The notes under the pieces: generated by a model
The model's input: the letters and a program-made list of their open reading frames with translations, nothing else
Databases searched by the model: none
Told to the model about the DNA's origin: nothing
IMG/VR virus record: IMGVR_UViG_2778261638_000005
Span: 6,684 to 70,683 of that record
Strand: one strand, 5' to 3'
From: a virus
Lineage: Duplodnaviria > Heunggongvirae > Uroviricota > Caudoviricetes
Length of the DNA stretch: 64,000 bases
Part shown: positions 35,739 to 54,805 of the stretch, in pieces
How the letters are laid out: each line of letters begins with the position of its first letter
How positions within the stretch are numbered: position 1 is the stretch's first letter
Translations under genes and position numbers: made by a program

Positions 35739-36656
35739 TTACAGGTAGTCAGCGACAACCAGTTGCAGCTTGCCCTTCATCTCGTTGGAGACGGTGGTAT
35801 TGCCATCCGCGAACAGTTCACGGTTAAGCAGTTGCTCTGCGGCTTTTTCCAGCCCGACCGGTACAACGATATGCGTCGGCTTCAGGCCCAGCTTCTTACC
35901 GCCATCACCTTCAAAAGATCGCATCAGTTGCCAGCCCTTCCAGAGGTTATCCAGCGTCAGATCGCCTTTTACCGCGACAGCCATCTGCCAGAAGCCGTAA
36001 CCGGCAGCACGGCGGGCGCTGGCACCAAACAGGAACTCGTTATCCATAAAAACGTGGTCGTCATCGATACGGGTACGTGCGACCAGCTCCGGTTTGCGGC
36101 GCTCCTGGAAAATCAGCGGTTTGACTGCGCGGGAGCAGTCCAGCAGATAGAACGGCAGACCGCTGAAGCTGTCCTGCTCAACGATGTTGGAGGTATTAAC
36201 CGCGCTGCCCGTGCCGTCCACATTCGGATATACCGGATGCTCCTTGTCGAAGAAGTTCTGACCGTCATAGCACGGCTGGGTAAAGCCATCTTTCAGAAGT
36301 TTAAAAATCAGCTCATCCGGCTGAACTGCCGCAGAACGGCCCATCTCCTGAAAAATCGGCGCATAAATACCCAAATTGTCATCGTCAAAGTCATCGCGGG
36401 AAATACCCACGGTGCCTTCAAACGTTTTATTGGCGATGGAGTAGCCATGCGCTTCCATTTGCTGAATGGTTCGCTTACCCACCCATTCTTTCAGGGTCGG
36501 GAATTTACCCAGCCAGCCATAGGTATTACTGCGGGTGGAAGAGTTCACCACCATTGCAATTTTGCTGTACTGCGACGGGGCGTCTTCAAGACCGCCCTGA
36601 AAATCCTTACGCCAGGAGGTCATCAGGGCTTTAATGGATGCCGGGGTGACAATCAT
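35739..36656 (-). CDS. Mu-type major head subunit (T)
   Basis: 305 aa after protease/scaffold gene; matches Mu T size. Confidence 0.8.
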   Translation of the reverse strand: MIVTPASIKALMTSWRKDFQGGLEDAPSQYSKIAMVVNSSTRSNTYGWLGKFPTLKEWVGKRTIQQMEAHGYSIANKTFEGTVGISRDDFDDDNLGIYAPIFQEMGRSAAVQPDELIFKLLKDGFTQPCYDGQNFFDKEHPVYPNVDGTGSAVNTSNIVEQDSFSGLPFYLLDCSRAVKPLIFQERRKPELVARTRIDDDHVFMDNEFLFGASARRAAGYGFWQMAVAVKGDLTLDNLWKGWQLMRSFEGDGGKKLGLKPTHIVVPVGLEKAAEQLLNRELFADGNTTVSNEMKGKLQLVVADYL

Positions 36657-37738
36657 TTTTCTTGTTCCTGTTTCATTTTCAGATACTCAGCCTCAGTAAT
36701 GCCGAGCGCCTTCACTGCTGCCTGTTCATCAGCAGACAGCACCGCCACCGCCGGTTTTTCCTGCGACGGGATTTTCGCTGTGGTGGTCTGCATGGCAGAT
36801 AACGCAGCGATGGGCTGTTTTTTCTCAAGCTGTGCCGACAGTGCCGCCACGCCAATCTGACCGCCAAGCTGTTCCAGATAGGTACGTTCGCTTTTGAAAA
36901 TGCGGCCTTCCTGTTCCGCCTTGTCCAGAACGGCGCTCAGGCTGGCTGTGGCGCTTTGTGCAGTCGCCTGTGCCAGTTCATCACGCAGGGCGTTGTAGCT
37001 TTCCACAGGGACGTATTTCGTCAGGTCAACGGCGGCTTTCTGTGCCTTTTCCAGTTCGGCGGATAACGACGCCACTTTTCCGGCATCTGTTTCGAGCGCA
37101 TCAAGCGCACTCAGGGCCGCGCTGGCCTGTTCATCGGTGATGTCTGCATTTTCGGGGACAGTCACCCCAAGACGCGCAAGCAGCTTGCGCAGCGTTTCAT
37201 TCATGGGTTTGTTCTCCTGTTGAAGGATGTCGGGAAGGTCTGCCGCCAGTGCGGTCAGCTTTTTCATGCCGGTGGCACCGGGGTCATTGGTCAGCGCAGC
37301 AAGGCGGATTTGCAGCACCGCACCGGAGGCGGTGTCATACGGAAAAACAGCAGAGAGATAACCAAATTCGCCGTCATCGATGCGCTGCTGGGCCGCCGCC
37401 GTCCAGCGTGGGTGGATAAATAACCCTTCACCTTCACGCCACTGCATTTCATCGGCGTTAAACCAGCCAGCCGCGACGAGTTGTTCCGGGGGTAATCCTT
37501 TGTCCTTACGTAGCTGGTTATGCTCGTAATCAATCAGCACGTCCTGGTTGAGCGCGCGAACGCCTTCAACCAGACGCCCGGCAATCTCACCGTCGATGAA
37601 CCACCCCTGACCACCTGTCACATCAAACGGGCGACCATCACGGGCACTGAAATGACCGGCAGGCAATAGCTGGCACCAGCCGTCATCGTCAATGGACAGC
37701 GCATTCAGTGCGGCAATGCCAATCGCGTGTTTTTTCAT
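36653..37738 (-). CDS. Mu I-like head protease/scaffold
   Basis: 361 aa; N-terminal protease-like domain and Ala-rich coiled-coil C-terminal scaffold domain. Confidence 0.75.
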   Translation of the reverse strand: MKKHAIGIAALNALSIDDDGWCQLLPAGHFSARDGRPFDVTGGQGWFIDGEIAGRLVEGVRALNQDVLIDYEHNQLRKDKGLPPEQLVAAGWFNADEMQWREGEGLFIHPRWTAAAQQRIDDGEFGYLSAVFPYDTASGAVLQIRLAALTNDPGATGMKKLTALAADLPDILQQENKPMNETLRKLLARLGVTVPENADITDEQASAALSALDALETDAGKVASLSAELEKAQKAAVDLTKYVPVESYNALRDELAQATAQSATASLSAVLDKAEQEGRIFKSERTYLEQLGGQIGVAALSAQLEKKQPIAALSAMQTTTAKIPSQEKPAVAVLSADEQAAVKALGITEAEYLKMKQEQEK

Positions 37739-37934
37739 GTCCTGCTGCTCATCATGGTTTGTGAGCAGTCAGTTTGCGGGAGGTGCGGGAAAATCTGGGG
37801 TTATGCTATTTGAGTACTGGAGAAAGAAAGTGGAAGGAAGATAAAACGGGATTCATACACCGTTAAATACCGGTTTAAAAATCCCGTGGCGCGTTTTAAA
37901 AAATCTGTGCGGCTGATTTCATGTCTGATTCCGT
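37739..37934 (-). promoter_or_regulatory. central intergenic region between G and I: candidate strong gyrase site and/or C-dependent late promoter
   Basis: 196-bp non-coding gap about 18.1 kb from the left end, the position where Mu carries its SGS. Confidence 0.4.
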
Positions 37935-38405
37935 TTATTGCCTCAGAGCGGCGCTGACGCGTTTTCTGATGGCATCAAAAATTTCCTGTTCCCCGGTCTT
38001 ATCCAGCCCCATATAAGGACGCGCAGGAACGCCTGCCGGGCGGGGTGCCATATCGGGTGTACCGCCCCACTGATGAATGGCAGCATAAATTTTTGGCGAA
38101 CCAATCAGGGCATAATCCTGTCCATAATCGGTGGTAATGCTGCGCGCCAGATCGCCATGCAGGGTAAGAATACTGCCCGGAACAAATCCATGATCCTGAC
38201 GCCATGCCTGCCACGAATCGCTCCATGCTTCCCAGCCTTTCCCTGTATCCGGGTCTGCCTGCCGTTCAAATGCCTGTTCCGTGGATGACAGCAGCGCCGC
38301 AGCCATCACACGGGGAATGGCGCGGTCACGTGTAACGGTTCCCAGTTCATCCAGTGCAAGCTGAATACGTCGCACATCCACGGCAACGTTCATATCAAGA
38401 CTCAC
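37935..38405 (-). CDS. Mu G-like virion morphogenesis protein
   Basis: 156 aa, between F and I. Confidence 0.7.
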   Translation of the reverse strand: MSLDMNVAVDVRRIQLALDELGTVTRDRAIPRVMAAALLSSTEQAFERQADPDTGKGWEAWSDSWQAWRQDHGFVPGSILTLHGDLARSITTDYGQDYALIGSPKIYAAIHQWGGTPDMAPRPAGVPARPYMGLDKTGEQEIFDAIRKRVSAALRQ

Positions 38406-39757
38406 TTATTCACCTCCACATGCCCCTCCAGTACGTCAATCATCCCGTCAGCAATCGCGGCTTCAAGCGACTGTGCAGATACGCGGCTGATACTGACCAG
38501 CACATCCGCACGGTCATTCTGCCTGCCGACTGTCTGTGATGTTCTGACCACAATCCGGGCCATGCCGTCACGGGTTGCCACAACATACAGCAACTGGTGG
38601 TTCTCCCTGTCCCACAATACCGCCTGTGGTTTTGCCATCAACGACGGCAGACGCTGTAAATCCTCCGGTTTCAGGGCGGCATCAGCAGTGGTCGCCAGAC
38701 TTTTTCCATTCATTACAAGCAGACGGGCGGGCATATTCCCGGTGCGCTGATATACGGCCTTCGCCACGGATCCCGTCATAAACCCCAGCGCCCGGATTTC
38801 ATGTCCGGCCCGGCGTGATTTCGCCAGACGTTTAAGCCAGAGGGAAAAAGCAAGCTGACGCTCCCGGCTGTTATTCAGTGTCTGCACAACCTGCTCACGC
38901 AGCTGCGCGTCGTGAATTTCCACCAGTTTTCGAATCAGTGCCTGATCCGTACCAAACGCCGCCGAACCCGGGTTATATGACCAGCCCACATCCGGCGTCA
39001 TTTTTACCCGACCGTTGTCAAACGTGGTTGACGATGTGCGGAAAATCTCTCCGGTGCTTTCATCCGTACCGGCATCCACTTCGCGGGTATTCATGAATGA
39101 TGCACCATAACTGACCTGTAGCCCTGGTTCTTTCATGCGGGCCGCAGACAGCGCCCGGACGCGACAGCGGCAGTTCCAGCCATTGGGCGGGTAATGCGTC
39201 TGCCAGAAAATGTCGTCATACCGGAAAACCATATTGTGCAGCCGCGCATGTTCCGGGCGTGTTCTGCCATCCATAACGGCAACGTACTGCCAGTACGGAT
39301 ACAAATCTGCGGTATTCATCATCTGTGCATAACGTCCCGCCCCGTACGCTGTACGGGTATTGACGTTATAAATGGTTGCCAGACGACGCGGACTGCCCAG
39401 TTCGATTTCCTTCGCGTTTCCCTCTGCATCCACGATGATTTGTTTTCCCCACCATCCGAGTTTTTGCAGCCGGGGGGCCAGTGTGCGGGTAAATTCCTCA
39501 CGGGTGATGCCTTCACTGACAGCCCGCTCCACTTCCTCACGGATTGTGGTCAGGACATCCATCCGGGTGGCTTTGGCAACGGTAAAGGCGCGGGCGTGCG
39601 CGTCTGCCAGTTGTTCGTACCAGTTCCAGGTGATGTTGTAGCCTTTGGCGCGGAAATACGCGACAGCCTCCTTTGGCGGGAGGCGTGCGGCATACGCCAG
39701 ATCAATGGTCTGCTGCGGCATCCAGACGCCCCCATATATCGGCAACAAAAATGGCAC
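38402..39757 (-). CDS. Mu F-like head morphogenesis protein
   Basis: 451 aa, follows portal. Confidence 0.75.
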   Translation of the reverse strand: MPFLLPIYGGVWMPQQTIDLAYAARLPPKEAVAYFRAKGYNITWNWYEQLADAHARAFTVAKATRMDVLTTIREEVERAVSEGITREEFTRTLAPRLQKLGWWGKQIIVDAEGNAKEIELGSPRRLATIYNVNTRTAYGAGRYAQMMNTADLYPYWQYVAVMDGRTRPEHARLHNMVFRYDDIFWQTHYPPNGWNCRCRVRALSAARMKEPGLQVSYGASFMNTREVDAGTDESTGEIFRTSSTTFDNGRVKMTPDVGWSYNPGSAAFGTDQALIRKLVEIHDAQLREQVVQTLNNSRERQLAFSLWLKRLAKSRRAGHEIRALGFMTGSVAKAVYQRTGNMPARLLVMNGKSLATTADAALKPEDLQRLPSLMAKPQAVLWDRENHQLLYVVATRDGMARIVVRTSQTVGRQNDRADVLVSISRVSAQSLEAAIADGMIDVLEGHVEVNK

Positions 39758-41240
39758 GGGTCAGCATGTCGATAAGTTCTGCATCATCCATCTGCGGATA
39801 TAATGAAGCGGCTTTGTTCATGGCGGCTTCCGGGCCATCTTTCAGCACAGAAAAAATGACGGGTTTCAGCAGGGGATCAACCGAACGCTGCCAGTCTTCC
39901 GGTGAGACGCCCATCCGGTCGATATCATCCTCCTGCGGGATATCTTCAGCGGATAATGCGGCCTCTTTCTGCGGACCGTTATCCATGACGACCGGTTGAG
40001 CAGTAAACACGGCTTCATCACCGACCGGTTGTGGAATATGGAGTTTTTCCTGTATCCAGGAGACCGGAATACGCATTCCCGCCGCCAGTTTCGGAATGGC
40101 GTCAGACAGTGCCGTAATATCACCCGCTTCACTGGTATCAAATACAATGCCCGGCAGGCGGTTAATATCAATGGTGCTGTCACTGTTCAGTGCCAGCAGG
40201 GGATAAATCAGGTCACGGTTAATACTGCGGGCAAGCTGGCCCACATCCGCATTACGGATTTCCCGGCGAACCTCATCATGCACTTCACCCAGCGACCGCG
40301 CACCTTTATCGCCAGCCTCTGTGGTCAGGGTGCCGCCCAGAATGGCTTTTGAAATCGCTTTTTCTGCCCAGCCAATCATCGCCATAAAAGGGTCTGACTG
40401 ACCATCTGCGGCGCTCTGAAAATCCAGCGTCATCCCCATCGGAATAATGCCACCGGCACGTCGCCCGATATCCATCACGGCCTGCATCAGCGTGGCTTTC
40501 TCGCGGTTCGTTGAGCCGGTCGGATATTTACCGACGCGCATGGGGAGTCCGTAAATTTCCAGAAACTCTGCAAAATCACGCACGGAATAGTTTTTAAAAA
40601 TAAAAGGCCAGATAAGCGTGCGCACAAGGCCATTGGTGCCGACATACCCGGTGCGGGATTTGGCCCGGTGCATAAACCAGCCGAACGGTTGCAGCTCCAG
40701 CCCGTGATAAGACGCATCACGCAGGCGTAATTCGTTCAGATTGTCGGGGTTCGCGCAGAACAGCGCCGGATCGCGATGATGCAGCGCCACCGGCACGCGC
40801 ATTTTCCCCAGCCAGCCCCATTCAATCTCCTGCATGGAATAGCCCTTGAGAATGGCATCACCGGCATCAAACAGGGCATCTTCAAACCACGCCGCATCAT
40901 GCAGATATTCATTCAGCATGTCGGCGTCTTTTTTCTCCTGTGCGCTGGCATCACGTGCCGGAGCGATGCGCCATTCCAGCGCCTGAATGGCAAGGCGGCG
41001 TTTGCTCAGTTCGGAAAAAAGGTGGGTGTCCTTTTCTTCCATATCAAAGGCCAGGTCAGCCTGTGCTGTCAGATCACCGCGTTCGGCATCACGCAGCATC
41101 TGCGCGGCCCGGTTCGGCGTCACACCACTGGAAGGATGCTCCTGCGTACGCTTCATGACCATTGCCAGCTCATCGCTGCGGGTCTGCATTTCATCGTCAA
41201 AATCAAACGGCTGCCCGGAAATATCCAGAATACGGCCCAT
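39702..41240 (-). CDS. Mu-type portal protein (gp29-like)
   Basis: 512 aa immediately after terminase large subunit. Confidence 0.8.
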   Translation of the reverse strand: MGRILDISGQPFDFDDEMQTRSDELAMVMKRTQEHPSSGVTPNRAAQMLRDAERGDLTAQADLAFDMEEKDTHLFSELSKRRLAIQALEWRIAPARDASAQEKKDADMLNEYLHDAAWFEDALFDAGDAILKGYSMQEIEWGWLGKMRVPVALHHRDPALFCANPDNLNELRLRDASYHGLELQPFGWFMHRAKSRTGYVGTNGLVRTLIWPFIFKNYSVRDFAEFLEIYGLPMRVGKYPTGSTNREKATLMQAVMDIGRRAGGIIPMGMTLDFQSAADGQSDPFMAMIGWAEKAISKAILGGTLTTEAGDKGARSLGEVHDEVRREIRNADVGQLARSINRDLIYPLLALNSDSTIDINRLPGIVFDTSEAGDITALSDAIPKLAAGMRIPVSWIQEKLHIPQPVGDEAVFTAQPVVMDNGPQKEAALSAEDIPQEDDIDRMGVSPEDWQRSVDPLLKPVIFSVLKDGPEAAMNKAASLYPQMDDAELIDMLTRAIFVADIWGRLDAAADH

Positions 41241-42895
41241 TACCAGCCCCCTCGTTCAAACTGGTGATAATCATCAAAATCATCGTTATCAACATCATCA
41301 CCACGGTGGCGTGGTGGCAGCGCCTGTATGCTGTCCTCGTCGATAACAAAACCATTCATATAAGACGCTCTGACAGCCATACAGAGCGCCACGGCAAAGT
41401 CGCCATGTCGTCGGCCTTTACCGCCTTCATCTTTTGTGCGCCCCTTATCAATCTGCGGAATACCTTTGTCCACCTTGATATGAAGCAGGTCATCAAGTGT
41501 GGTCTGGTGCCGGGCAATCGTGATGTTCTGCGCTTCAAACTCGCCTTTCAGTTTTGGCATCCACTCCTGATACCAGGATGCGGTCAGATTCACACAGTCG
41601 ATCATCTCCGGGCCATAAATCAGACGGGCGGCTTCTGCCAGATAACCGCCGTTACCGGTGGCATCAAATGCAGCGCCGGTAAAACGGGGCAAACGGGACA
41701 GAATGAATAAAAGGATTTGTCGCTGCTGGTCATAGGTCACATTACGCAGCTCCACGCGGAAACATTCGCGTTTGCGTAAGTCAGGCGTGATGGCAAGTGG
41801 CACAAACACCGTCAGGTCGCCACGGCGTGCAAAGTCTTCGCCCAGTACGTGTTTATTGAGCGGCGACAGCGCATCGAGCAACGGGAGCAGCTCCTGTTCA
41901 CACCAGTCCTGAACGATGCCGTGGCGCATTTGTGGTGTCAGCGATTCAAAATCGTCCGGTGCTTCAAAACGCAGAATCGGGATATCCCGCGCTGGCGTCA
42001 TGGCGGCTTCAATCAGCACGCGTGACAGATAAGCGCCCCCGGATTTTTTAGGAATGCAGCCGTATTCCTCGTCGGCACTCTCTTTATTCGGCGCATTCCG
42101 GTACAGGCCATCACGCCAGGCTTTTTCCGCTTCCGGCGACCACGGCTGATTCGTGACGTAACAGATACGTCGGTACAACCCGTCAGCGATGGCATCATCC
42201 AGCGTGATGCGGTGAACGCTGTAATCCTTGCGCCCCTCGCGCGCATCCTGAATGTACTGATTAAACAGATTATCGACGCCGTTATGTGTCGATATGATCC
42301 GCACGCGGGCACCCCACATGGTGAGAGCAAAAGCCGCTTTCAGGAGTTCGTCCAGGGCTTCATGAAATGCCGCCTCATCAATCACCACGTCCCCCTGCAA
42401 ACCACGCAGGTTAGACGGACGGCTTGACAGCGCCTGCACCTTAAATCCGCTGTTAGGGAAACGGATCATATAAGTGAGGATTTCTTCTTTTTTGTCGCTG
42501 TCCCAGAAGGTCTGCTCCCATACGTCAGCCTTTGCCAGTTGGTTAAAGGCGCGGGCAAACAGGGCACAGGCGGCAATGTATTCCAGCGCCATTTCCTGAC
42601 GGGACCCCACATAAAAGACGTTGCGACCACCGCGACGCCTCGGCTTTGCGGCCGTCATGACATTGCGGCCCGCTTCGGCCCATGTCAGACCGGTACGACG
42701 GGATTTTTCAGCAATACAAATCTGGCTTTCATCCTCAAACCAGCGGCGCTGATAACCCAGAAAAACCGGTTCATTGCGAGGCTGTGCTTCCCCGATATCG
42801 GTAACGATATTCACGCCCAGCAGTTCGGCTTCCTCACGCAGGTCGATTTTTCGGGGGGCATGAAGGGCTTTAAGATTGTTTTCTCTGGTGTTCAT
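41240..42895 (-). CDS. Mu-type terminase large subunit (gp28-like)
   Basis: Track ORF extends to 43087 but probable start is MNTREN at 42895; about 551 aa. Confidence 0.8.
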   Translation of the reverse strand: MNTRENNLKALHAPRKIDLREEAELLGVNIVTDIGEAQPRNEPVFLGYQRRWFEDESQICIAEKSRRTGLTWAEAGRNVMTAAKPRRRGGRNVFYVGSRQEMALEYIAACALFARAFNQLAKADVWEQTFWDSDKKEEILTYMIRFPNSGFKVQALSSRPSNLRGLQGDVVIDEAAFHEALDELLKAAFALTMWGARVRIISTHNGVDNLFNQYIQDAREGRKDYSVHRITLDDAIADGLYRRICYVTNQPWSPEAEKAWRDGLYRNAPNKESADEEYGCIPKKSGGAYLSRVLIEAAMTPARDIPILRFEAPDDFESLTPQMRHGIVQDWCEQELLPLLDALSPLNKHVLGEDFARRGDLTVFVPLAITPDLRKRECFRVELRNVTYDQQRQILLFILSRLPRFTGAAFDATGNGGYLAEAARLIYGPEMIDCVNLTASWYQEWMPKLKGEFEAQNITIARHQTTLDDLLHIKVDKGIPQIDKGRTKDEGGKGRRHGDFAVALCMAVRASYMNGFVIDEDSIQALPPRHRGDDVDNDDFDDYHQFERGGW

Positions 42896-42902
42896 AACCC
42901 TC

Positions 42903-43493
42903 TCATGCCTTACCCAGCAGCACATCACGGATACGCTGCTCCAGCTCTTCGCTGATGCCATCCTGCCCGCGCAGTTCTTCACTGACGGCGTTTGCCGCTT
43001 CTTCTGCGAATGCCTGGCGGATTTCTTTCTCGCGCCGGTGGCTGGACATTGCCGTGGATTCCAGACGCTGTGCCGCCAGCATGGCATTTTTCAGCAGGTC
43101 AATATCCACGTCAGATTCCGGGTTTTCGATTTGCCGCATCATGGCCTTAAAAAGCTGGCTGCGGGCCATTTCCAGAATCAGCTTTGTGGTTTCTCCCATT
43201 GGCTTGTCACCAAGTTCTGCGGTCAGTGCTGACGTCATTTCACGCATCTGTCGCAGGTTATGGCCTACCTGCTCGACGTTCGTCGCGTAACGGTTCAGAC
43301 CGGAACGGGAGAGTTTCATCTCATCCGGCAGGCCAGCGTCTTCAATCAGTACGTTAATTTCTTCCAGAATGCGGGCCTGTGGGATCGCTTTATCACGCAG
43401 CATTTCATGCAGCGTTTTACGTACGTTTTCCGGCAGTAAATCCACTTTTGAAGCCCGGCCCCGTGTTTTCCTGTCCATCACGCCTCCTGTCAT
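42903..43493 (-). CDS. Mu gp27-like protein (putative terminase small subunit)
   Basis: 196 aa directly upstream of the large terminase. Confidence 0.6.
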   Translation of the reverse strand: MTGGVMDRKTRGRASKVDLLPENVRKTLHEMLRDKAIPQARILEEINVLIEDAGLPDEMKLSRSGLNRYATNVEQVGHNLRQMREMTSALTAELGDKPMGETTKLILEMARSQLFKAMMRQIENPESDVDIDLLKNAMLAAQRLESTAMSSHRREKEIRQAFAEEAANAVSEELRGQDGISEELEQRIRDVLLGKA

Positions 43494-43780
43494 GCACGGG
43501 GACGAGGACGCTTGACACCGGCAACGCGGGCACGACCTTCCGCCACATCCTGACCTCGGGAGGTCAGCGTTACGACATAAAAGCCGCGCAGGTTTTCCAC
43601 GGTGACCAGTTGCTGCTCTGCCAGCCAGTCAATCTGGCCGCGAACCACATCGCGGGAAACGTTGTGTCCGTATGCATCCAGACAGTCCTGAAGGATGGAT
43701 TCGTTTGCTTCGTTATTGCAGTCCATCAGGGAACGCAGGATGACCAGACGACGGTCTTCGGTCAGAATATCGTTAATCAT
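43490..43780 (-). CDS. Mu gp26-like protein
   Basis: 96 aa, conserved position. Confidence 0.45.
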   Translation of the reverse strand: MINDILTEDRRLVILRSLMDCNNEANESILQDCLDAYGHNVSRDVVRGQIDWLAEQQLVTVENLRGFYVVTLTSRGQDVAEGRARVAGVKRPRPRA

Positions 43781-44094
43781 GAATTACTCCGGTTTACTGC
43801 GTTTTCAAGCAGCAGCTCCAGTTGATGGGAAAATGACTGCACCCGCTGGGACAGCACCCGGATATCGCCGGACAGCTCTGCAATTCGCAGGCGCATTTCG
43901 TGTACATCTTCTGTGCCAGGGATGCTGGCGTAGCGGGTTTCCATTTCGGTCATCCGGTTTTCAAGACGCTCCACACGCTCAGTGCTGGCAAAACTACGAC
44001 GCATTGCCCAGACGGCCCCACCGGCCACAACAGGCAACAGGTAAGGCCATAACGCTAAAACTGAAATCAAATCCATTATTCTGCTCCACGGCAC
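43777..44094 (-). CDS. membrane/coiled-coil protein (lysis-region)
   Basis: 105 aa with N-terminal hydrophobic helix then coiled coil. Confidence 0.4.
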   Translation of the reverse strand: MPWSRIMDLISVLALWPYLLPVVAGGAVWAMRRSFASTERVERLENRMTEMETRYASIPGTEDVHEMRLRIAELSGDIRVLSQRVQSFSHQLELLLENAVNRSNS

Positions 44095-44270
44095 CAGTGG
44101 CAGTAGTTCGCCATCGGCTGCTGTCTCAGCACATCAGGCCGCAGCTCACGACCGCAACCGGCACACAATACAGGCGGGTCATACGCCGCCGGGCGGGGAA
44201 TATCACGGGTATCCCCCTGCCAGAGTTCAGCGAGCAGCAGCGCCACCGCCCGGTTCTGGTCTTCGTTCAT
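44076..44270 (-). CDS. small Cys-pair protein (lysis-region)
   Basis: 64 aa with CAGCG...CHWC. Confidence 0.4.
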   Translation of the reverse strand: MNEDQNRAVALLLAELWQGDTRDIPRPAAYDPPVLCAGCGRELRPDVLRQQPMANYCHWCRGAE

Positions 44271-44568
44271 AAATTTCTTTCCTTCGGGTCTCCTGTTCCC
44301 GGACTGATGCCTTGTCGCGGTTGCACTGCCCGAGCGCCATCAACAGGTCAGCATTCCAGAGAAGGGATGCTCCCCACGTCAGGGGCTGTGGCATGGGCGG
44401 AACGGGCGTTGCTTCCGTCAGTTCTGCATCAGTTTCGGGCAGGATCACCACCGATGGCACGGGTGCGTTTTTCGAGTTCCCGCAACCTGTCAGCAGCAAC
44501 GGCAGGCACAGGACGAGTGCTGCAATTGTCACCGGTAATGGCGGTTGTAATTTTTTGTTTTGCATCAT
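44227..44568 (-). CDS. o-spanin (outer-membrane lipoprotein)
   Basis: Probable start MMQNKK at 44568; signal peptide with lipobox LLLTGC; partly embedded in the i-spanin gene in another frame. Confidence 0.6.
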   Translation of the reverse strand: MMQNKKLQPPLPVTIAALVLCLPLLLTGCGNSKNAPVPSVVILPETDAELTEATPVPPMPQPLTWGASLLWNADLLMALGQCNRDKASVREQETRRKEIYERRPEPGGGAAAR

Positions 44569-44815
44569 GATGTTCTGTCTCGTCTGCCAGCCGCGCGGCA
44601 CGATTTGCGGCACGGATAGCGGAAAATACCTGCATCGTCTGTTCCTGACCGTGTAACAACCATTCAGCCGTGTTGCGGGCCTGTTGCTCCGTCTGTAATT
44701 CACGGCGCAGCGTCTGGTTATCGTGGCGGGTGCTGTCCAGCCTGTGCCACAACACCCCGGACAGAACGGCGGCAAACACGGCTGCCAGCAGTAAACTTTT
44801 ACTGGCGAAGGTCAT
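44429..44815 (-). CDS. i-spanin (inner-membrane spanin subunit)
   Basis: 128 aa, N-terminal transmembrane helix and coiled-coil periplasmic domain; overlaps o-spanin and endolysin. Confidence 0.6.
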   Translation of the reverse strand: MTFASKSLLLAAVFAAVLSGVLWHRLDSTRHDNQTLRRELQTEQQARNTAEWLLHGQEQTMQVFSAIRAANRAARLADETEHHDAKQKITTAITGDNCSTRPVPAVAADRLRELEKRTRAIGGDPARN

Positions 44816-45317
44816 CCGCCCCCCTGATATTCCAGATAGCCATTTCCACTTCGCGACGGTTCATCAGTCCTTTCCATTTATGGCCTGCGGCAAACACCCA
44901 GCGGGCCATCTGGTCACGCGCTCCGGCGTAATCACCGGCATTGAGTTTTTTCAGCAGCGTTGATTTACTGAATGCGGTAACACCGGTGTTGAAAATAAAC
45001 GTTGCCAGCGCCGTTTTCTGATATGGCGTCAGCGGCACCCTGACAAGACGATCGATTGCCGCATAAACCGGTTTTAAATCACTGTCGAGAAGAGCCATAC
45101 ACTCCGCATGGCTGTAACGGCGCATTTCGATATCCGGCCCGGTATGTCCCACACAGACCGTAAGCACACCGGCAATATCGCGGTAAGGCATATAAGCGAT
45201 ATTTTCCAGATGGATCAGAGACTGACGGGTCATTTCCTGATAACCACCCACACCGCCACCGGCAATCGTTGCCGCCAGCAGTGCGGCTTTCAGTTTTTTT
45301 GGTATCCCCGCCATCAT
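44799..45317 (-). CDS. SAR endolysin, T4-lysozyme-like (Mu lys position)
   Basis: 172 aa; N-terminal signal-anchor-release type hydrophobic segment (LKAALLAATIAGGGVGG) followed by lysozyme-like domain; downstream of C. Confidence 0.75.
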   Translation of the reverse strand: MMAGIPKKLKAALLAATIAGGGVGGYQEMTRQSLIHLENIAYMPYRDIAGVLTVCVGHTGPDIEMRRYSHAECMALLDSDLKPVYAAIDRLVRVPLTPYQKTALATFIFNTGVTAFSKSTLLKKLNAGDYAGARDQMARWVFAAGHKWKGLMNRREVEMAIWNIRGADDLRQ

Positions 45318-45408
45318 GCTTCCCTGAAAAAATGCGCTGATGGCAGTCTAAAAAATCAGATGGCAGGTGCGGGATTATGGTGACAGGAAATAACCGGCAG
45401 GATGCCGG

Positions 45409-45831
45409 TTATTTTGGGCTTTCAGGTGAGAACAGATCAGGCTGATGACGTCGTGTATGCAGCTTTCTCTGGCGGGCAATAATCTGGTAGATCTGCGGCT
45501 GGGACAGGCGGTACTGGCGACGCAGTTCTTCCATGTTACGACCATTAAACTGGCAGTAAAGCAAATCGTCACGTAACGCGGTCAGGATCGTATCGCCGCA
45601 GGGGATGTAAAACTGCCGTCCGCCCAGAAAACAGGACAGGGCAACGGCCTGTTTACGGGCAAGCTCACGGGGATTGCTGACGTTCTGGCGTTTCAGTTCG
45701 TTTTCCAGAACATCAATCAGATCAACCACCGAACGGGGCCAGCGTGATTCCAGTTCCGGGGCCGGGATGTTATCAATATGTCCGATTAACTGGCGAATTG
45801 CCGGATCGTGTTCAAATAAATCATGCTGCAT
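45409..45831 (-). CDS. late transcription activator C (Mor/C family)
   Basis: 140 aa; paralogue of mor product at 46810-47199 with shared C-terminal HTH pattern (FNGRN...ELRRQY). Confidence 0.8.
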   Translation of the reverse strand: MQHDLFEHDPAIRQLIGHIDNIPAPELESRWPRSVVDLIDVLENELKRQNVSNPRELARKQAVALSCFLGGRQFYIPCGDTILTALRDDLLYCQFNGRNMEELRRQYRLSQPQIYQIIARQRKLHTRRHQPDLFSPESPK

Positions 45832-45843
45832 ATTTTCCCCCGG

Positions 45844-45963
45844 TTAACAGACAGAAAGATACACCACGGCACTGATGGTTATCAGAACCACAAGGGCAAT
45901 CACTTTTATCGCACTCATCAGCGTGGACGGCCCGAAACATTCATCACTGAATTTTCTGTACAT
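45844..45963 (-). CDS. small single-pass membrane peptide (not in ORF track)
   Basis: 39 aa MYRKFSDECFGPSTLMSAIKVIALVVLITISAVVYLSVC; sits between 76-aa gene and C. Confidence 0.35.
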   Translation of the reverse strand: MYRKFSDECFGPSTLMSAIKVIALVVLITISAVVYLSVC

Positions 45964-46174
45964 GGTATTTTTCTCTGTAGCGCCGGCAATGGTGGATAAT
46001 TTCTGGCATATCAACGGACTGCCAGCCTTTCATGTAATAGCTCCCGTGGGTGCCATCGTGCCCTGTGTAATCCATTGGCTTTGGTGGCGGGCCTCCGGCC
46101 TCCCGATGTAATACCTCCTGTTGTAAACGTTCGCGCCTGCCGAACTGAAAGGACGCATCCCACCCTTTACCCAT
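45944..46174 (-). CDS. hypothetical small protein
   Basis: Probable start MGKGWD at 46174, ATG overlapping upstream stop (ATGGGTAA). Confidence 0.4.
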   Translation of the reverse strand: MGKGWDASFQFGRRERLQQEVLHREAGGPPPKPMDYTGHDGTHGSYYMKGWQSVDMPEIIHHCRRYREKYHVQKIQ

Positions 46175-46727
46175 GCAGAACCTCCCGACAGGCGCTGGCG
46201 AGCAGATCCAGACGGTTAAACCAGCCATTCAGATATTTCCCCTGCGAGGCACTGGATTTGATAATCCCTGCGTAATAGCGGGAACGACGCAGGAAGCACT
46301 GCAACAGCAGCCAGTCAGTATCGGCACGCAGAACGGCTGCGCGTGTGTTTTTACCGACGATGCCATCATCATCAACACCTGCTGCCGCCTGGAGGATCTG
46401 AATCGCGCGTTTAACACCGAGCTGAACGGCAGCATCAAAAACGAATAAGGAAACGCCATCAGGCCATTCGTTACACTTTGCCGCCAGCCAGTAATCACGC
46501 CAGTAGATCTGCGCCGCCTGCTCGCGGGTTAAATCCTTAATGCGGGTATCAGGTTTTCCGTCACCGTTAACATCGGTTTTGCCATCAATAACGCCGTCGC
46601 GACGGTCAGAGATACCGTATTTCGTTTCGCCGCCACGGTCAGTGGGATCATCAACATATCCACCTTCAACATCAGGTCGTATAACGAAATTCAGCGAATG
46701 AAGGAATGCAGGGGAAAACTCAGGCAT
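46167..46727 (-). CDS. GH108-type muramidase with peptidoglycan-binding domain
   Basis: 186 aa; GYVDDPTDRGGETKYGIS motif characteristic of glycoside hydrolase family 108; C-terminal PG-binding-like region. Confidence 0.65.
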   Translation of the reverse strand: MPEFSPAFLHSLNFVIRPDVEGGYVDDPTDRGGETKYGISDRRDGVIDGKTDVNGDGKPDTRIKDLTREQAAQIYWRDYWLAAKCNEWPDGVSLFVFDAAVQLGVKRAIQILQAAAGVDDDGIVGKNTRAAVLRADTDWLLLQCFLRRSRYYAGIIKSSASQGKYLNGWFNRLDLLASACREVLHG

Positions 46728-46809
46728 GTTGCCCTCCAGTCATGAACGTTTTGTCGTCACAACAGAATATTGAGGGCGTAAAAAAAGCCGGATTAACCGG
46801 CTTTACTGT

Positions 46810-47199
46810 TTACAGAAGTGAAGGCTGGTACTGGCGGTATTTCAGCCGTCGCATCCGGCGAATGGCCTTGTAAACCGTATTGAAAGTGACACCATAACGG
46901 GTGGTCAGTTCGCTGACGTTGCGACCGTTAAAATCATTCCAGATACGCAAATCCCGAATCAGCGAGTCCAGAACCTGACCGCGCGGAATGTAGACCTGAC
47001 CGCCCCCCAGATGCTTACAGATAGCCACAACAATCTCCAGTGAATGAGCAGGATCAACACCCAGCCGGGACAATTCCCCGCGCAGTAAATCGTTCAGCTC
47101 CGCCAGCAGTGCCGGAAAGCGTGACGTATCCTCTGCGGGATTGTCAAGATGTGCCAGGATGGTGTCATCCTGCAAATCACCAAATAAATCTTCCGTCAT
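46810..47199 (-). CDS. mor: middle operon regulator Mor
   Basis: 129 aa Mor/C family; upstream of C and lysis genes. Confidence 0.8.
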   Translation of the reverse strand: MTEDLFGDLQDDTILAHLDNPAEDTSRFPALLAELNDLLRGELSRLGVDPAHSLEIVVAICKHLGGGQVYIPRGQVLDSLIRDLRIWNDFNGRNVSELTTRYGVTFNTVYKAIRRMRRLKYRQYQPSLL

Positions 47200-47747
47200 T
47201 GTGCCATCCTCCGCGTCTTTCTGGCATGGGCATAAGCCGCCGTCATGGCATCATAGCCGCGCAGTTCACGACCGGACGGACTGACCGGCAATGGAAGCCC
47301 GTGACGGGAAAAGGCTTCACGAATACAGCGGATGTGCCACTGCTTGAGTGTTTCGAGGACTGTCAGCAGCGTGTCGCCATGACACCACGCCAGTGTGGAA
47401 ACGCCCTGTCCGCCGTTGCGTTTCGCGGTCAGGCGTTGAACATATCTGTCCAGCGCCACATCACCGCCATCGGTAATAAAACCGTCTTCTGCCATCTGCT
47501 GCCAGATTTTATACACCTTCTCGCGGGGTGTGACATGCCCCTTAAACCGACGGCGTGGGTGTTTATTCTGCTTCTTAAAGCCGCGTTCTTTCATGGCATC
47601 GAGCACCTGTTTCAGTTGCGTAACCGTAAGCTCGCGGCAACTGATTTTGCCCGTTTTCTGCATCAGAAAAGCGCGGTAAGTGTCGTCGTCGAGTTGTAGA
47701 TCACGACGGGCGACATGAATTAATTTAATCAGGGATGTGCGACTCAT
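47196..47747 (-). CDS. Mu gp16-like protein (DUF1018-type)
   Basis: Probable start MSRTSLIKLIHVARRDL at 47747 with GGAGG RBS; track ORF extends further upstream. Confidence 0.65.
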   Translation of the reverse strand: MSRTSLIKLIHVARRDLQLDDDTYRAFLMQKTGKISCRELTVTQLKQVLDAMKERGFKKQNKHPRRRFKGHVTPREKVYKIWQQMAEDGFITDGGDVALDRYVQRLTAKRNGGQGVSTLAWCHGDTLLTVLETLKQWHIRCIREAFSRHGLPLPVSPSGRELRGYDAMTAAYAHARKTRRMAQ

Positions 47748-47820
47748 GATCGTACCTCCGGAAAGGGGGCGGTGCTGCAACACCGCCTGTACTATTGATA
47801 ACACTGAAAATGGAGACAAC

Positions 47821-48060
47821 ATGTCTGTAGAAAACAATGCGTCAATCACTTTTAACCTGGTTTCAGGTCTGATGGTGAAACTTGTTCGTAACAAGATTCT
47901 GACAAAGTGGGAAGCTCAATCCATACTGGCCTCTGCAATTCTTGAAAACGTTCAGAACCAGGAGGGGGTTACTGATTCGGATCTTGATGCACTTCGTCTG
48001 AAACTTGCTATGTCGGATTTCAGCGTTGAAAAAGAGCCTCCACAAGACGATCAGGCGTAA
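47821..48060 (+). CDS. hypothetical protein, opposite-strand gene inside Mu early region
   Basis: 79 aa from ATG 47821 with GGAG RBS 5 nt upstream; fills the only gap in the minus-strand early gene array. Confidence 0.4.
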   Translation: MSVENNASITFNLVSGLMVKLVRNKILTKWEAQSILASAILENVQNQEGVTDSDLDALRLKLAMSDFSVEKEPPQDDQA

Positions 48061-48316
48061 TCACGTCTGATGGTTTAAGTCCCAGCCTGCGGCGAATAAA
48101 TGCGTCGCGGGCTTTTTTGTTATCCAGTGAAACTTCATCTGCAATAATATTAATTTCATGCTGGATAATATTCACAGTAACACGAGCAGAAAGCCCTTCA
48201 CGGATAGCAATATCAATAATATCGCGCATACGCTCAAGCATTTTAGCTTTCACCAGTTCTTCATCCAGGTCTTTAGGCGTAAATTTAGTTTCATTATTCA
48301 TATTATTCACCTTCAC
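48020..48316 (-). CDS. hypothetical early protein
   Basis: 98 aa ORF. Confidence 0.45.
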   Translation of the reverse strand: MKVNNMNNETKFTPKDLDEELVKAKMLERMRDIIDIAIREGLSARVTVNIIQHEINIIADEVSLDNKKARDAFIRRRLGLKPSDVITPDRLVEALFQR

Positions 48317-48485
48317 AATTCATGCACGCCGTGTCATCGCCCATATCGCAGTGGTTGCATTTCAGCCCGCCACAATGAGGGCACTCTTTCAGATATTCAG
48401 GGGCTTCATTACCGCAGGTCGGACATGCCTGTTTCACCGTGGTAAATTTCCCCAGCCACGAATACGATGTTTCATTGTTTTCCAT
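48303..48485 (-). CDS. small zinc-ribbon protein
   Basis: 60 aa with CPTCG...CPHCG...CNHC...CMNC. Confidence 0.45.
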   Translation of the reverse strand: MENNETSYSWLGKFTTVKQACPTCGNEAPEYLKECPHCGGLKCNHCDMGDDTACMNCEGE

Positions 48486-49023
48486 TGTTTACCCCCGCCT
48501 GTTCCAGTGCCATAACTGGTGCGTCAGAACAGTCAAGAATGAGATAGCGCAGTACATGGTCGGTGATATTCCATGCGTTTGAGCTGCAAATAAAACGCCC
48601 TGGCCGGATATCAATATAAGCCATCACAAAACGGGGCATTCCCTGTTCGCACATCCTGTTATCCACTTCTGCAACGATGTGAACGGATTCACAGGTCAGC
48701 ACGCCCGTTGCAAACTCTTTTGCCAGCGCGGGGATGGTATTACCTTCCACCCAGGGTAATGAGCGACGCCAGTTGCACCACACCGCATCATCAACAGCAG
48801 GCTGCTCAGTTGCGTTTCGTCTTACAGGCGGCGTCGGACGTGGGCGCGGAACGTCATAAAATCCGTTGCATTCGGTGAGAACACCGGCATCAACCGCATC
48901 ACGCAGGAAATACACCATTGACGAGGGCAGCATATTCATTTTTTCAGCCAGAACCCCGCAGGTCAGACGCCCGTAAGCCCGTAATAATGTGCTGACACCA
49001 TTCAGAACTTTTGCATCAATCAC
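48472..49023 (-). CDS. hypothetical early protein
   Basis: 183 aa ORF. Confidence 0.45.
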   Translation of the reverse strand: MIDAKVLNGVSTLLRAYGRLTCGVLAEKMNMLPSSMVYFLRDAVDAGVLTECNGFYDVPRPRPTPPVRRNATEQPAVDDAVWCNWRRSLPWVEGNTIPALAKEFATGVLTCESVHIVAEVDNRMCEQGMPRFVMAYIDIRPGRFICSSNAWNITDHVLRYLILDCSDAPVMALEQAGVNNGKQ

Positions 49024-49026
49024 CGG

Positions 49027-49581
49027 TTATTCCTCCGTCAGCGCCACAAATTCAGAATGTTTAATGCGCTGGCATTCGGCGGGAACCGGTCCCTTCACTT
49101 CGCCAGCCAGAAGGTACACCGCAAACAAAATGCTGAATCCGTCACGGCTGTGGTGCATTTTCCACACGGACCTGATGTCAAACAGGTCAACGTCGGTAGC
49201 CACGTTAAGTTCATTGCACAGCCAGCGCGGAAAATCCGGGTTTTTTTCGAGCTGATTTTCACAGTCCCGGATGAGCTTCCCGTACTCACGGCCTGCCGGT
49301 ATTGTCATATCCGGCATTGCGCCCCATAACTGAATATCACCAATGAAAAGTGTCCTTGATTTAATCTCCCATCCTTCCGGTGGTAAGTAGCTAAACCAGA
49401 CATGCGTAACCCTCTCAGGCCCTTTGTCACCAGACAAAGACACACCGATTGCTTTCACTGATTGCTGTAATGACTCAATAATCTCACCACGCTTAACAGA
49501 AACCTCTTTCAGCCAGCGAATCGTATAACCGTTAGCGGCTGTGTCACTCAGTTTAAAATAAGCACATGCTTTCATTTTCAT
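49027..49581 (-). CDS. hypothetical early protein
   Basis: 184 aa ORF. Confidence 0.45.
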   Translation of the reverse strand: MKMKACAYFKLSDTAANGYTIRWLKEVSVKRGEIIESLQQSVKAIGVSLSGDKGPERVTHVWFSYLPPEGWEIKSRTLFIGDIQLWGAMPDMTIPAGREYGKLIRDCENQLEKNPDFPRWLCNELNVATDVDLFDIRSVWKMHHSRDGFSILFAVYLLAGEVKGPVPAECQRIKHSEFVALTEE

Positions 49582-49672
49582 TCTCTCCGGTTCTGATTAA
49601 GGCGCGAGTAGTCCTCTGACGCATCGCGCCATAATTAAACGAATGTGAATTAATTAAATATTAATGGTGGTA

Positions 49673-50197
49673 TTAAATACCGGCTTCCTGTTCAAACGGA
49701 ATAATGGAAAAATCTTCAATTCCCGATTTAACCGTAATTCCGGCAACACCTGCGACGGCTTTTGGTTCCAGTAAAATCGCCTCCTTGTTGATTTCCTGCT
49801 TCGTGCGAATAAAGCGTTGCAGGCCAAGACGCTCCAGCGTTTCCATCACTGCATCCATACCACGAATACTTACTGATGGTGGACGGACCCGCCACGATAC
49901 ATCACCGGTGACAAGATTCGCCGTCTTCACTTTGCCGCCGTTCGTCAGTTCGTCGCGGTTCGCTTCACACCATCCCTGAACGCCTTTTGAAAGGGTTTCA
50001 ATATCGGTTTTAATCGGTGCAATTCGGGCCGCAAATTTCTCCGTAATTTCCGCGATGGCATCATTCATTTCCGTTTCCAGACGTGATGCTTCGCGCTGTA
50101 AATCCCCGATGCGTTTAATATCGGTAATCACCGCATCGCGGTTTTGTGGCACATAAGCCGCTGCGGCACTCTTGATACGTTTTGCTGGTTTAGCCAT
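49673..50197 (-). CDS. gam: Gam, Ku-like DNA-end-binding host-nuclease inhibitor
   Basis: 174 aa; N-terminus MAKPAKRIKSAAAAYVPQNRDAV matches Mu Gam as recalled. Confidence 0.8.
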   Translation of the reverse strand: MAKPAKRIKSAAAAYVPQNRDAVITDIKRIGDLQREASRLETEMNDAIAEITEKFAARIAPIKTDIETLSKGVQGWCEANRDELTNGGKVKTANLVTGDVSWRVRPPSVSIRGMDAVMETLERLGLQRFIRTKQEINKEAILLEPKAVAGVAGITVKSGIEDFSIIPFEQEAGI

Positions 50198-50216
50198 AAA
50201 TTAAAGCTCCTGTTAA

Positions 50217-50516
50217 TTAATATCCGCTGTATACAATGCTGGATACAGCTCGATTGCTTAATTCCATCTTTCGGGCAATGACATGAATATCCAGTCCTTC
50301 TTTATAAAGTTCACGACATAAATATTTGTCGTGTTCACTGATTCGGTATACACACAATGATATTCCGTGCCTTCTGGCATGTGCCCGGAGGGCGGTTGTG
50401 GCGACTTTCAGTTTTTCCGCCATTTCTTCAACGGTCATTTTCCCGACGTTGGCTTCGATAAATTCCCGGTCTTCGCGTGACCAGCGCTTACGATTATACT
50501 TCATGTCAGCCACCAT
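50217..50516 (-). CDS. putative DNA-binding early protein
   Basis: 99 aa, HTH-like MTVEEMAEKLKVATTALRAHARRHG. Confidence 0.4.
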   Translation of the reverse strand: MVADMKYNRKRWSREDREFIEANVGKMTVEEMAEKLKVATTALRAHARRHGISLCVYRISEHDKYLCRELYKEGLDIHVIARKMELSNRAVSSIVYSGY

Positions 50517-50936
50517 TCAGTACAGCAGAGGCTCGCGCAGTGATGCCGGAATATGCCGCAGCGATAACTGAACCGCTTTCAGGGCAAGCGAGGAATAACA
50601 GCAGCGCGCCCAGCCTTTTGCCATTAACCGGTAATCGCGCCAGATACGCTGCCACATTTCACGGGCTTCAGGGTCTGATGCGCAGATGTATTCCCGGTCC
50701 ATGACGTACTCCCATAAATCCACGTTGAACGCACCGCCAAATGCAATGGCGCGGGATATGCTTTCGCCGCAATAACGCGCACAGATGCTGTAATGGTCGA
50801 AAGCAATCAGGTAAGTCTTTTCACCACAATCATCAACTTTTCGGGCGCAAATAAACTCGCGTAATTCACCACCGTTGTTATTGCGTTCCTGAATTCGGAT
50901 TAATGCCTGAATTTCATTTCGGATTTTGACGTTCAT
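50517..50936 (-). CDS. hypothetical early protein
   Basis: 139 aa, Cys-containing. Confidence 0.4.
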   Translation of the reverse strand: MNVKIRNEIQALIRIQERNNNGGELREFICARKVDDCGEKTYLIAFDHYSICARYCGESISRAIAFGGAFNVDLWEYVMDREYICASDPEAREMWQRIWRDYRLMAKGWARCCYSSLALKAVQLSLRHIPASLREPLLY

Positions 50937-50956
50937 TGTCAGCGTTCCTTTGCGAA

Positions 50957-51226
50957 TTAATGTTTAACCACATTCACCGGACGTGGTACTAAATCACATT
51001 CAGCTTCCATACCCACTTTCTTCATAGTGGTCAGCATCTCATCTTTGGCCTTTTTAATAATTTCAGGAGCCATAGTCAGGACTATATTTGCCAGTAAATC
51101 ATGAGGCCCGGTATTTTCCGTTGGCGAGATATCTGCAAGACATGCTTTTGCATCCAGAACTTCTCTGCGCCCATTGCAACTGTCACTACTTTCCAGCCAT
51201 GTAAACTCAAAGATAACCTTTGCCAT
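50957..51226 (-). CDS. hypothetical early protein
   Basis: 89 aa ORF. Confidence 0.4.
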   Translation of the reverse strand: MAKVIFEFTWLESSDSCNGRREVLDAKACLADISPTENTGPHDLLANIVLTMAPEIIKKAKDEMLTTMKKVGMEAECDLVPRPVNVVKH

Positions 51227-51246
51227 TTTTCTTCTCCTTATTGATT

Positions 51247-51492
51247 CTAAATAACTGCGCTGGCTTTTACCTTCGCGCCTTTTACCTGCTTAAAGAAAAC
51301 TGCGCTGCACCACGGACAACATGTCAGGGAATCCCGAATTTCCTTTTCGGGTGAGCATTGCGTCATAATCTGTTCACCGCATCCTGGGCATTTATATGTC
51401 GTCAGCGGCACCCCGTGGCACTGACAGTGTTTAACCCATTCAATATATTTTTCAGCTTTAATACACATCGTTATCTCCAGATAATCTGGCAA
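51247..51492 (-). CDS. small zinc-ribbon protein
   Basis: 81 aa, CQCH...CPGCG...CCPWC. Confidence 0.4.
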
Positions 51493-51698
51493 CCATTAAG
51501 ACGGGCCGTCCATACAGAACGGGCCACCCCGGACTTATGCTCCATAATTCTGACCGCGTTTTTTACCAGTTCCACCGGTGGGTAAGTGATTTCAAGAATC
51601 GGACGCGCCACGCCGAGATATGATTCATTTACATGACTCCCGCGCGCCTGTAACCAGTTCTGCGCATCCGTTGCCATTTTTATATTTCGTGACATCAT
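51471..51698 (-). CDS. small early protein at the Mu kil position
   Basis: 75 aa, first gene downstream of B. Confidence 0.4.
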
Positions 51699-51709
51699 TA
51701 TTTATCCCC

Positions 51710-52642
51710 TTACCACCAGTTCAGTAATTTCGGGTTGCTGTAAACCTCTTTAAAAGCTGCTTTAATGTAGCCTTTGGATAGAGGAACGCCTTTCCCGCTG
51801 GCAGCCAGCCACGCCTGATTCAGCGTATGAGTTAATACACGTAATGCACCTGGTTTTTCCGCGATGCTCTGCATGAGTGATAATTCATCTTCGCCCTCAA
51901 TGCCCCAGGCTTTCGCAATTGCCACCACGTCAGCCTTTTTGGCTTTACGTAGTTGCTTTGTTCTGGCGAAACGACTGAACAAACGTGCAAGGTCATCTGT
52001 TCCCCGGTGTGTGGCTTTGGCTAACTGGTGTGGGTTGCCAATCAATACCATCCCGACGCCGGTTGCATCCTGAATGGCGCGTAACTGCTCCAGCCCGTCC
52101 ATGCTCAGGTGGTCAGCTTCATCCACAATAACCAGACCGCGTGTGCCATTCAGTTTTTTGCGAATGGCGCGGGTCAATGCGCCTTTATTCCTTTGCGGAT
52201 TATCAATTCCCAGCGCGTCTGCCAGCTCCAGCAGACACTCAGTCACTGTTGAGTGTGCAGGGGAAAGGGTCACCATCCAGGTATTAGATACACGGTTACT
52301 GTATTCACGGGCCGCAACGGTTTTACCAACACCCGGCACACCAACCAGAACGCTGATACAGCCCATAACACGCACGGTCTGAAACAGCTCGCGCAAATCA
52401 CGGAGGGTTTGTGTTTCCACAAGTTGTGGTGCGCCAGGTAACTCCAGACTTTTTTGCCAGCTCTGATGCCACATCAGTAATTTGTCATGCATCCCTTCGG
52501 TATCACCTTTGTAACGGCCTTTGCGAAGTTCAGAAAGAGTGGCCTCCGACACCCCCGCTTCTTTAGCAATAGCGCTTTGTGTTTTTACGCCGTCAGTAAT
52601 AAGTGTGTTAATCGTGTTGAAAACATCATTAATATCGGTCAT
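51710..52642 (-). CDS. B: transposition ATPase B (target DNA activator)
   Basis: 310 aa; Walker A GVPGVGKT, Walker B LVIVDEADHL; N-terminal HTH; downstream of transposase. Confidence 0.9.
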   Translation of the reverse strand: MTDINDVFNTINTLITDGVKTQSAIAKEAGVSEATLSELRKGRYKGDTEGMHDKLLMWHQSWQKSLELPGAPQLVETQTLRDLRELFQTVRVMGCISVLVGVPGVGKTVAAREYSNRVSNTWMVTLSPAHSTVTECLLELADALGIDNPQRNKGALTRAIRKKLNGTRGLVIVDEADHLSMDGLEQLRAIQDATGVGMVLIGNPHQLAKATHRGTDDLARLFSRFARTKQLRKAKKADVVAIAKAWGIEGEDELSLMQSIAEKPGALRVLTHTLNQAWLAASGKGVPLSKGYIKAAFKEVYSNPKLLNWW

Positions 52643-52715
52643 ATTATTCTCCGTTTATTCAAATCAGCTTTGTTTCCTTCGTTTAACAGTCCGTTCCCGC
52701 GGACTGTTTTTTTAT

Positions 52716-54803: not shown

Positions 54804-54805
54804 TT

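Follow-up and report, generated by a model that had tools for sequence, protein, structure and literature searches.

An overlapped two-component spanin gene pair in the lysis cluster of a mosaic Mu-type prophage

Lysis by phage Mu, reported to proceed without a holin, depends on gp22, a SAR endolysin, and on the releasin gp25, which is needed to free gp22 (Chamblee et al. 2022, mBio, PMC9239132). By amber mutation and complementation, the same study identified gp23 and the overlapping, formerly unannotated gp23.1 as the spanin subunits of Mu. For instance, an amber mutation at W65 of 23.1 resulted in spherical cells in the presence of Mg2+, and this defect was rescued by lambda Rz/Rz1 (PMC9239132). 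Two-component spanin genes occur in three layouts, and among the 528 pairs surveyed by Kongari et al. (2018, PMC6139136) the overlapped layout was the commonest (228 pairs, as compared with 182 embedded and 118 separated ones). Both Mu and D108 are listed in SpaninDB as overlapped, with the o-spanin in the +1 frame (PMC6139136).

We examined the lysis genes of a Mu-type prophage in a 64,000-nt stretch of viral DNA, hereafter the window. The region from 44227 to 44815, read on the minus strand, almost certainly encodes a two-component spanin of this prophage, arranged in the overlapped layout and belonging to a late lysis operon, lys-23-23.1-24-25. An earlier note, made from the letters of the window, had claimed exactly this span for two spanin genes, and the span coincides with the union of both genes in the ORF listing. 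What the note called a partly embedded arrangement is termed the overlapped architecture in the field (PMC6139136).

All genes of the cluster lie on the minus strand. The cluster begins with the orthologue of Mu gp22/lys, a SAR endolysin gene for 171 aa at 44799..45314, which matches Pfam Phage_lysozyme (E = 1e-37) and PHROG 7 (endolysin) and occupies the position homologous to Mu_22. Its ORF is 44799..45317; the position equivalent to the start in the Mu annotation is 45314, and an extra in-frame ATG 3 nt upstream, at 45317, would give 172 aa. The residues E37, D46, T52 and K6/K7 are all found in its translation, and a single amino-acid change, V15A, separates it from the Mu protein. The i-spanin gene, the orthologue of Mu gp23 (Mu_23), encodes 128 aa from an ATG at 44429..44815 and matches the Rz-like spanin family PHROG 214 (E = 1.2e-34). 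Its first 17 nt (44799-44815) are shared with the endolysin gene and include the endolysin stop codon (TAA, 44799-44801), as the earlier note had pointed out. The o-spanin gene, the orthologue of Mu gp23.1 (Mu_55), encodes 113 aa at 44227..44568, opens with ATGATG, and matches Pfam LysC (PF23793, E = 7.7e-15) as well as PHROG 3001 and 456. Since its start lies 247 nt downstream of the i-spanin ATG, the o-spanin is read in the +1 frame. The two genes have 140 nt in common (44429..44568), comprising the last 46 codons and the stop of the i-spanin gene together with the part of the o-spanin gene for the signal peptide, the lipobox and the start of the Pro-rich linker, and the o-spanin gene continues for 202 nt past the i-spanin stop. 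The earlier note was thus right that the lipoprotein gene starts within the i-spanin gene in a different frame and extends beyond it.

Downstream, the o-spanin gene overlaps by 44 nt (44227-44270) the orthologue of Mu gene 24 (44076..44270), which encodes a 64-aa protein with a CxxC...CxxC motif, matches PHROG 3260 (E = 1e-42, unknown function) and corresponds to Mu_24, annotated as a hypothetical protein. The first 44 nt of gene 24 therefore lie inside the o-spanin gene, and the gene sits between the o-spanin and releasin genes. The releasin gene, the orthologue of Mu gp25 (Mu_25), encodes 99 aa with an N-terminal transmembrane domain at 43777..44076 and matches DUF2730 (Pfam, E = 2.5e-13); it is followed by gene 26, which in the ORF listing encodes 96 aa at 43490..43780. 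Genes 24 and 25 overlap by 1 nt (TAATG), and genes 25 and 26 by 4 nt (ATGA). The earlier note had described a compact overlap of three genes. This is correct for those three, but it is not the full extent of the arrangement, as six consecutive genes, lys/23/23.1/24/25/26, are chained by overlaps of 17, 140, 44, 1 and 4 nt. The spanin genes are placed directly downstream of the Phage_lysozyme gene and overlap it, and the releasin gene lies two genes further. A G-rich Shine-Dalgarno sequence (GGGGGG) precedes the i-spanin gene, and a weak one (GAG), annotated likewise in Mu, precedes the o-spanin start. A scan of the lysis cassette for promoters and terminators yielded nothing above the shuffle expectation.

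The cluster proved to be closely related to that of Mu. A 2.2-kb stretch of the window (43700-45900) is 98.8% identical in nucleotide sequence to Escherichia phage Mu, with 27 differences over 2201 nt in a base-by-base comparison, and 99.5% identical to phage PhiR68_1. Pfam matches over the region are Phage_lysozyme, LysC, DUF2730 and Mor. The curated Mu record (AF083977.1) has at homologous positions the regulator C, the C-activated late promoter, Mu_22, Mu_23, Mu_55, Mu_24 and Mu_25, and the neighbours C, lys, 24, 25 and 26 are the same in both phages. In that record, Mu_23 is annotated as the i-spanin (10979..11365) and Mu_55 as the o-spanin (11226..11567), with a lipobox LTGC at C29. The lengths of the two proteins (128 and 113 aa), the +1 frame, the overlaps of 17, 140 and 44 nt, and the position of the lipobox are all shared with the window. 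The identities that the earlier note gave to the endolysin, i-spanin and o-spanin therefore agree with the curated record and with the experiments on Mu (PMC9239132), and the comparison with the Mu spanins it had called for shows the two pairs to be orthologous. The i-spanins are identical at 124 of 128 residues (96.9%) and the o-spanins at 108 of 113 (95.6%); from Mu to the window, the substitutions are T15A, G21V, H48N and E87Q in the former, and K4N, L12P, I46T, T48A and I94T in the latter. None of them touches the core of the transmembrane helix, the lipobox or the cysteines, and W65 is found at the identical position of the window's o-spanin.

The layout is also that of P2 LysB/LysC, the prototype of the overlapped class, in which the o-spanin gene, shifted to the +1 frame, begins within the i-spanin gene and runs past its end. 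The window's o-spanin belongs to the LysC Pfam family as does P2 LysC, albeit P2 represents a different phage lineage and relies on a holin in place of the SAR endolysin and releasin of Mu-type cassettes (PMC9239132). Lambda Rz/Rz1 follows the same logic, an inner-membrane subunit being combined with an outer-membrane lipoprotein encoded in the +1 frame, but Rz1 is contained wholly within Rz. We detected no sequence similarity between lambda Rz/Rz1 and the window's spanins. The embedded type represented by lambda was rejected for the window, as the o-spanin stop at 44227 is 202 nt past the i-spanin stop at 44429.

The membrane signals and predicted shapes of the two proteins are textbook features of spanin subunits. 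One transmembrane helix, SLLLAAVFAAVLSGVLW, lies at the N-terminus of the i-spanin, with a hydropathy peak of 2.28 at residues 7-23, from which we infer an N-in/C-out topology. In the AlphaFold model, helices span residues 3-79, 83-95 and 103-120, and the break at around residues 80-102 holds Cys98, the only periplasmic cysteine of the protein. The lipoprotein signal of the o-spanin was judged by a pattern and hydropathy check, which called for [LVI][ASTVI][GAS]C with the Cys in the first 35 residues, a positive n-region and a hydrophobic core. The protein carries K5 and K6 in the n-region (two Lys among the first seven residues), the hydrophobic core VTIAALVLCLPLL, a 13-residue segment with a mean hydropathy of 2.75, and L-T-G-C29, and it matches the PROSITE PS51257-type pattern. 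The lipobox LLLTGC read by the earlier note is present within LPLLLTGC, with its Cys at residue 29. After Cys29 come Gly at +2 and Asn at +3. As there is Gly and no Asp at +2, the o-spanin bears no inner-membrane retention signal, and its sequence is that predicted for sorting to the outer membrane. The mature o-spanin would be 85 aa long, with 10 Pro and the conserved Cys82. Its AlphaFold model, based on a shallow alignment and of modest confidence, comprises a signal helix (12-27), a disordered Pro-rich linker (30-64) and a confident C-terminal helix (65-101). The predicted secondary structures of both proteins fit spanin subunits. As each protein has a periplasmic cysteine, Cys98 in the i-spanin and Cys82 in the mature o-spanin, homotypic disulfide links are probably formed through these residues. 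A unimolecular spanin of the T1 gp11 type was also considered and discarded, as the o-spanin ends in a charged C-terminus (...RRKEIYERRPEPGGGAAAR) without a C-terminal hydrophobic segment, and the two functions reside on separate proteins. Family searches for the i-spanin gave only a sub-threshold match to DUF2570 in Pfam and no significant match to a named LysB-type family; NCBIfam offered no useful family for either spanin, and a sequence search of solved structures returned no match to the i-spanin.

Relatives of the i-spanin are encoded at 23 IMG/VR loci. In each of the eight full-length loci that we inspected, among them the three with i-spanins of only 53-54% identity, a 128-aa i-spanin is accompanied by a 113-aa lipoprotein ORF in the +1 frame with identical start and end offsets. 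In the three divergent loci the lipobox is conservatively altered to LLTSC, and the i-spanin Cys is kept. We computed pN/pS in the three frames against one divergent locus (54%-identical i-spanin). In the segment belonging only to the i-spanin gene, the values were 0.42 in the i-spanin frame, 1.24 in the o-spanin frame and 1.28 in the third frame. The corresponding values were 0.61, 0.61 and 1.12 in the segment common to both genes, and 4.19, 0.19 and 1.00 in the segment belonging only to the o-spanin gene. Purifying selection thus acts on each frame precisely in those segments for which a coding role is proposed. A search of protein databases with the o-spanin returned just nine matches, as o-spanin genes of the overlapped kind are seldom predicted. 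When eight database homologues were aligned, Cys29, Cys82 and the block LGxCNRDK were the same in every sequence.

Two of the nine matches, P0001 and P0004, are i-spanin::o-spanin fusions, with lengths of 195 and 193 aa. A run of six A (AAAAAA, 44550-44555) lies just downstream of the o-spanin start, and programmed frameshifting at this run was considered and dropped. P0001 results from the deletion of one A in the run, on a Logan contig in which the endolysin gene is split and gene 24 truncated as well, so that an assembly or homopolymer error is its likely origin. The PHROG 214 profile spans both proteins, being matched by the i-spanin at positions 10-127 and by the o-spanin at 126-175, which suggests that such fusions contaminate this family.

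The prophage that carries the cluster occupies 19092..56000 (36,909 bp) in minus-strand orientation, with its left end at 56000. It splits the gene for replication protein P of a phiV10-like (Uetakevirus) prophage, of which the flanks are 1-19091 and 56001-64000; uninterrupted phiV10 sequence continues directly across the insertion junction. This prophage-in-prophage junction was not found in any complete E. coli genome of the collection searched. The late region is ~99% identical to Mu, but the early region and the ends of the element differ from those of Mu. The early module (51710-55767) contains genes for a transposase (52716-54803), a B protein (51710-52642), a ner-like protein (54806-55078) and, on the plus strand, a repressor (55132-55767). 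The transposase is only 22% identical to MuA, the nearest relatives being those of Haemophilus phage SuMu (43%) and D3112-type phages (31%), and the B protein is 44% identical to MuB. Yersinia phages vB_YpM_5/6 have this early module as well, as do 10 of 5426 complete E. coli genomes. The phage is thus a mosaic of a Mu late region and a SuMu-like transposition module. In its middle operon, the place of Mu genes 18 and 19, between mor and gene 20, is occupied by a gene for a 186-aa GH108 + PG_binding_3 muramidase (46167..46727, minus strand) without a signal peptide or transmembrane domain. It is shared with vB_YpM_5 and the prophage of E. coli WS1933D and is absent from the sister prophage of E. 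coli S6, and it is a second peptidoglycan hydrolase for a type of phage that reportedly has no holin.

The ends of the prophage, 5'-TATAGAGAGG...GCGCGCTTTA-3' (positions 55991-56004 and 19088-19101 of the window), are of the form TA...TA, unlike the TG...CA of Mu. We sought the left-end sequence of Mu, confirmed against the Mu record, in the window and found no match, which led us to recognise that the ends differ from those of Mu. The comparison of ends also took in vB_YpM_5. Four independent insertions are flanked by 4-bp target duplications: GTGC for the window's prophage, checked against the uninterrupted phiV10 target; GTGA in ydcO of E. coli 1290; TTAA in patD of E. coli S6; and AGCC in glpT of WS1933D. 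As a control, the same procedure applied to the true Mu prophage of E. coli W recovered TG...CA ends and the expected 5-bp duplication, GCCGC. Target duplications are 5 bp in Mu and 6 bp in B3 (PMC8705779), and the SuMu-like transposition module appears to make 4-bp ones. In the literature searched, we found no description of TA...TA ends with 4-bp duplications, and the paper on vB_YpM_5/6 (PMC10434027) does not discuss the ends.

Could the lipobox ORF be merely a chance open frame that yields no functional translated protein? When the codons of the i-spanin gene were shuffled, 9% of the resulting sequences had a +1 frame open across the 140-nt overlap (the final 46 codons), so that the openness of this frame is by itself weak evidence; many phage records carry no annotation of the ORF, and the Shine-Dalgarno sequence upstream of it is weak. 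These points are outweighed by the match to LysC, by a pN/pS that, past the i-spanin stop, is 0.19 in the o-spanin frame as against at least 1.0 in the other frames, by the invariance of the two cysteines, and by the retention of the 113-aa ORF and an intact lipobox in 54%-identical relatives, a degree of conservation on which the proposal of the earlier note depended. Above all, the W65 amber mutation in the same ORF of Mu gives a spanin-null phenotype (PMC9239132). Mu genetics effectively refutes the idea of a chance frame, to which we attach hardly any probability. A different proposal, that the o-spanin is real but starts elsewhere and overlaps the i-spanin gene to another extent, is possible, although we do not favor it. 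The alternative starts are the second ATG (44565, 112 aa), a GTG at codon 13 (101 aa) and a start past the i-spanin stop (73 aa). SpaninDB indeed gives D108 a protein of 112 aa with a 137-nt overlap, counted from the second ATG, and PGAP called lysC genes of 306 nt in E. coli S6 (L034 26642-26947) and 222 nt in WS1933D (L035 12202-12423). Nevertheless, the 101-aa form lacks the positive n-region with K5/K6, and the 73-aa form lacks both the signal peptide and the lipobox; thus, neither could be a lipoprotein. Furthermore, the 113-aa form is used by the Mu record and by the numbering of the W65 amber allele. A further, unannotated in-frame ATG that Mu has 15 nt upstream of the annotated start is ACG in the window (44582), a change synonymous in the i-spanin frame (D78). 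It follows that the o-spanin gene can do without Mu's upstream ATG, the conserved start being the tandem ATGATG. Whether the first or the second ATG is used (113 or 112 aa) is functionally trivial.

A third alternative leaves the two genes as read here and concerns the element around them: the spanin genes may be intact and yet have lost their role in lysis, the prophage that carries them being non-inducible and in decay. The location of the prophage within another prophage could be taken in its favor. Nevertheless, the element has its full length and both of its ends, flanked by a clean target duplication, and none of the six genes in the lysis cluster is interrupted, their proteins being 95.6-100% identical to those of Mu. 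In addition, the live phages vB_YpM_5/6 (PMC10434027) are isolates of sister elements, with 97-99% identity in the segments compared. We therefore regard a decayed prophage as very unlikely, and retain the reading of the gene pair as a Mu-type spanin in the overlapped layout.

Being orthologous to the Mu spanins, the window's genes should work in the same way, and the pair would, by analogy with the Mu orthologue (PMC9239132), be required for disruption of the outer membrane. We infer the topology, lipidation, disulfides and membrane fusion of the window's allele, and the steps below are carried over from Mu and lambda. The late activator C would turn on the lys promoter, giving one mRNA from which gp22, the SAR endolysin, is made as a protein tethered to the inner membrane, to be freed by the releasin gp25. 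The same mRNA would give the i-spanin, inserted in the inner membrane as a type II protein with a helical domain that is expected to span the periplasm, as well as the o-spanin, which signal peptidase II would cut at the lipobox with lipidation of Cys29. With Gly at +2, the o-spanin would be sorted by the Lol system to the inner leaflet of the outer membrane. The two subunits would bind each other by their periplasmic C-terminal parts, probably as disulfide-linked homodimers (Cys98 and Cys82), and the peptidoglycan mesh would keep the spanin complexes apart. Once the mesh is destroyed by the endolysin, the complexes could collapse and fuse the inner and outer membranes, and the cell would burst.

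It is attractive to speculate that the overlap chain lys/23/23.1/24/25/26 couples the translation of its genes and thereby sets the proportions of endolysin, spanin subunits and releasin, and that gp24 is an overlooked fifth component, or else a regulator, of the Mu type of lysis without a holin. gp24 is conserved and encoded between two lysis genes, and it goes unmentioned in the study on Mu lysis (PMC9239132). We consider this proposal unlikely on the whole.

The spanin pair described here is not new, as its class and the gene pair itself (in Mu) are known already, and the feature is real but ordinary. It does hold a lesson for annotation. The NCBI pipeline labels the i-spanin "hypothetical protein" in two sister prophages (S6 and WS1933D), and several records of Mu-like phages omit the o-spanin gene; a reading made from sequence only did better than several of the deposited and automatic annotations we examined. 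In itself, the spanin pair matters little. The more interesting biology lies in the host element, in which a Mu late region is combined with a SuMu-like transposition module.
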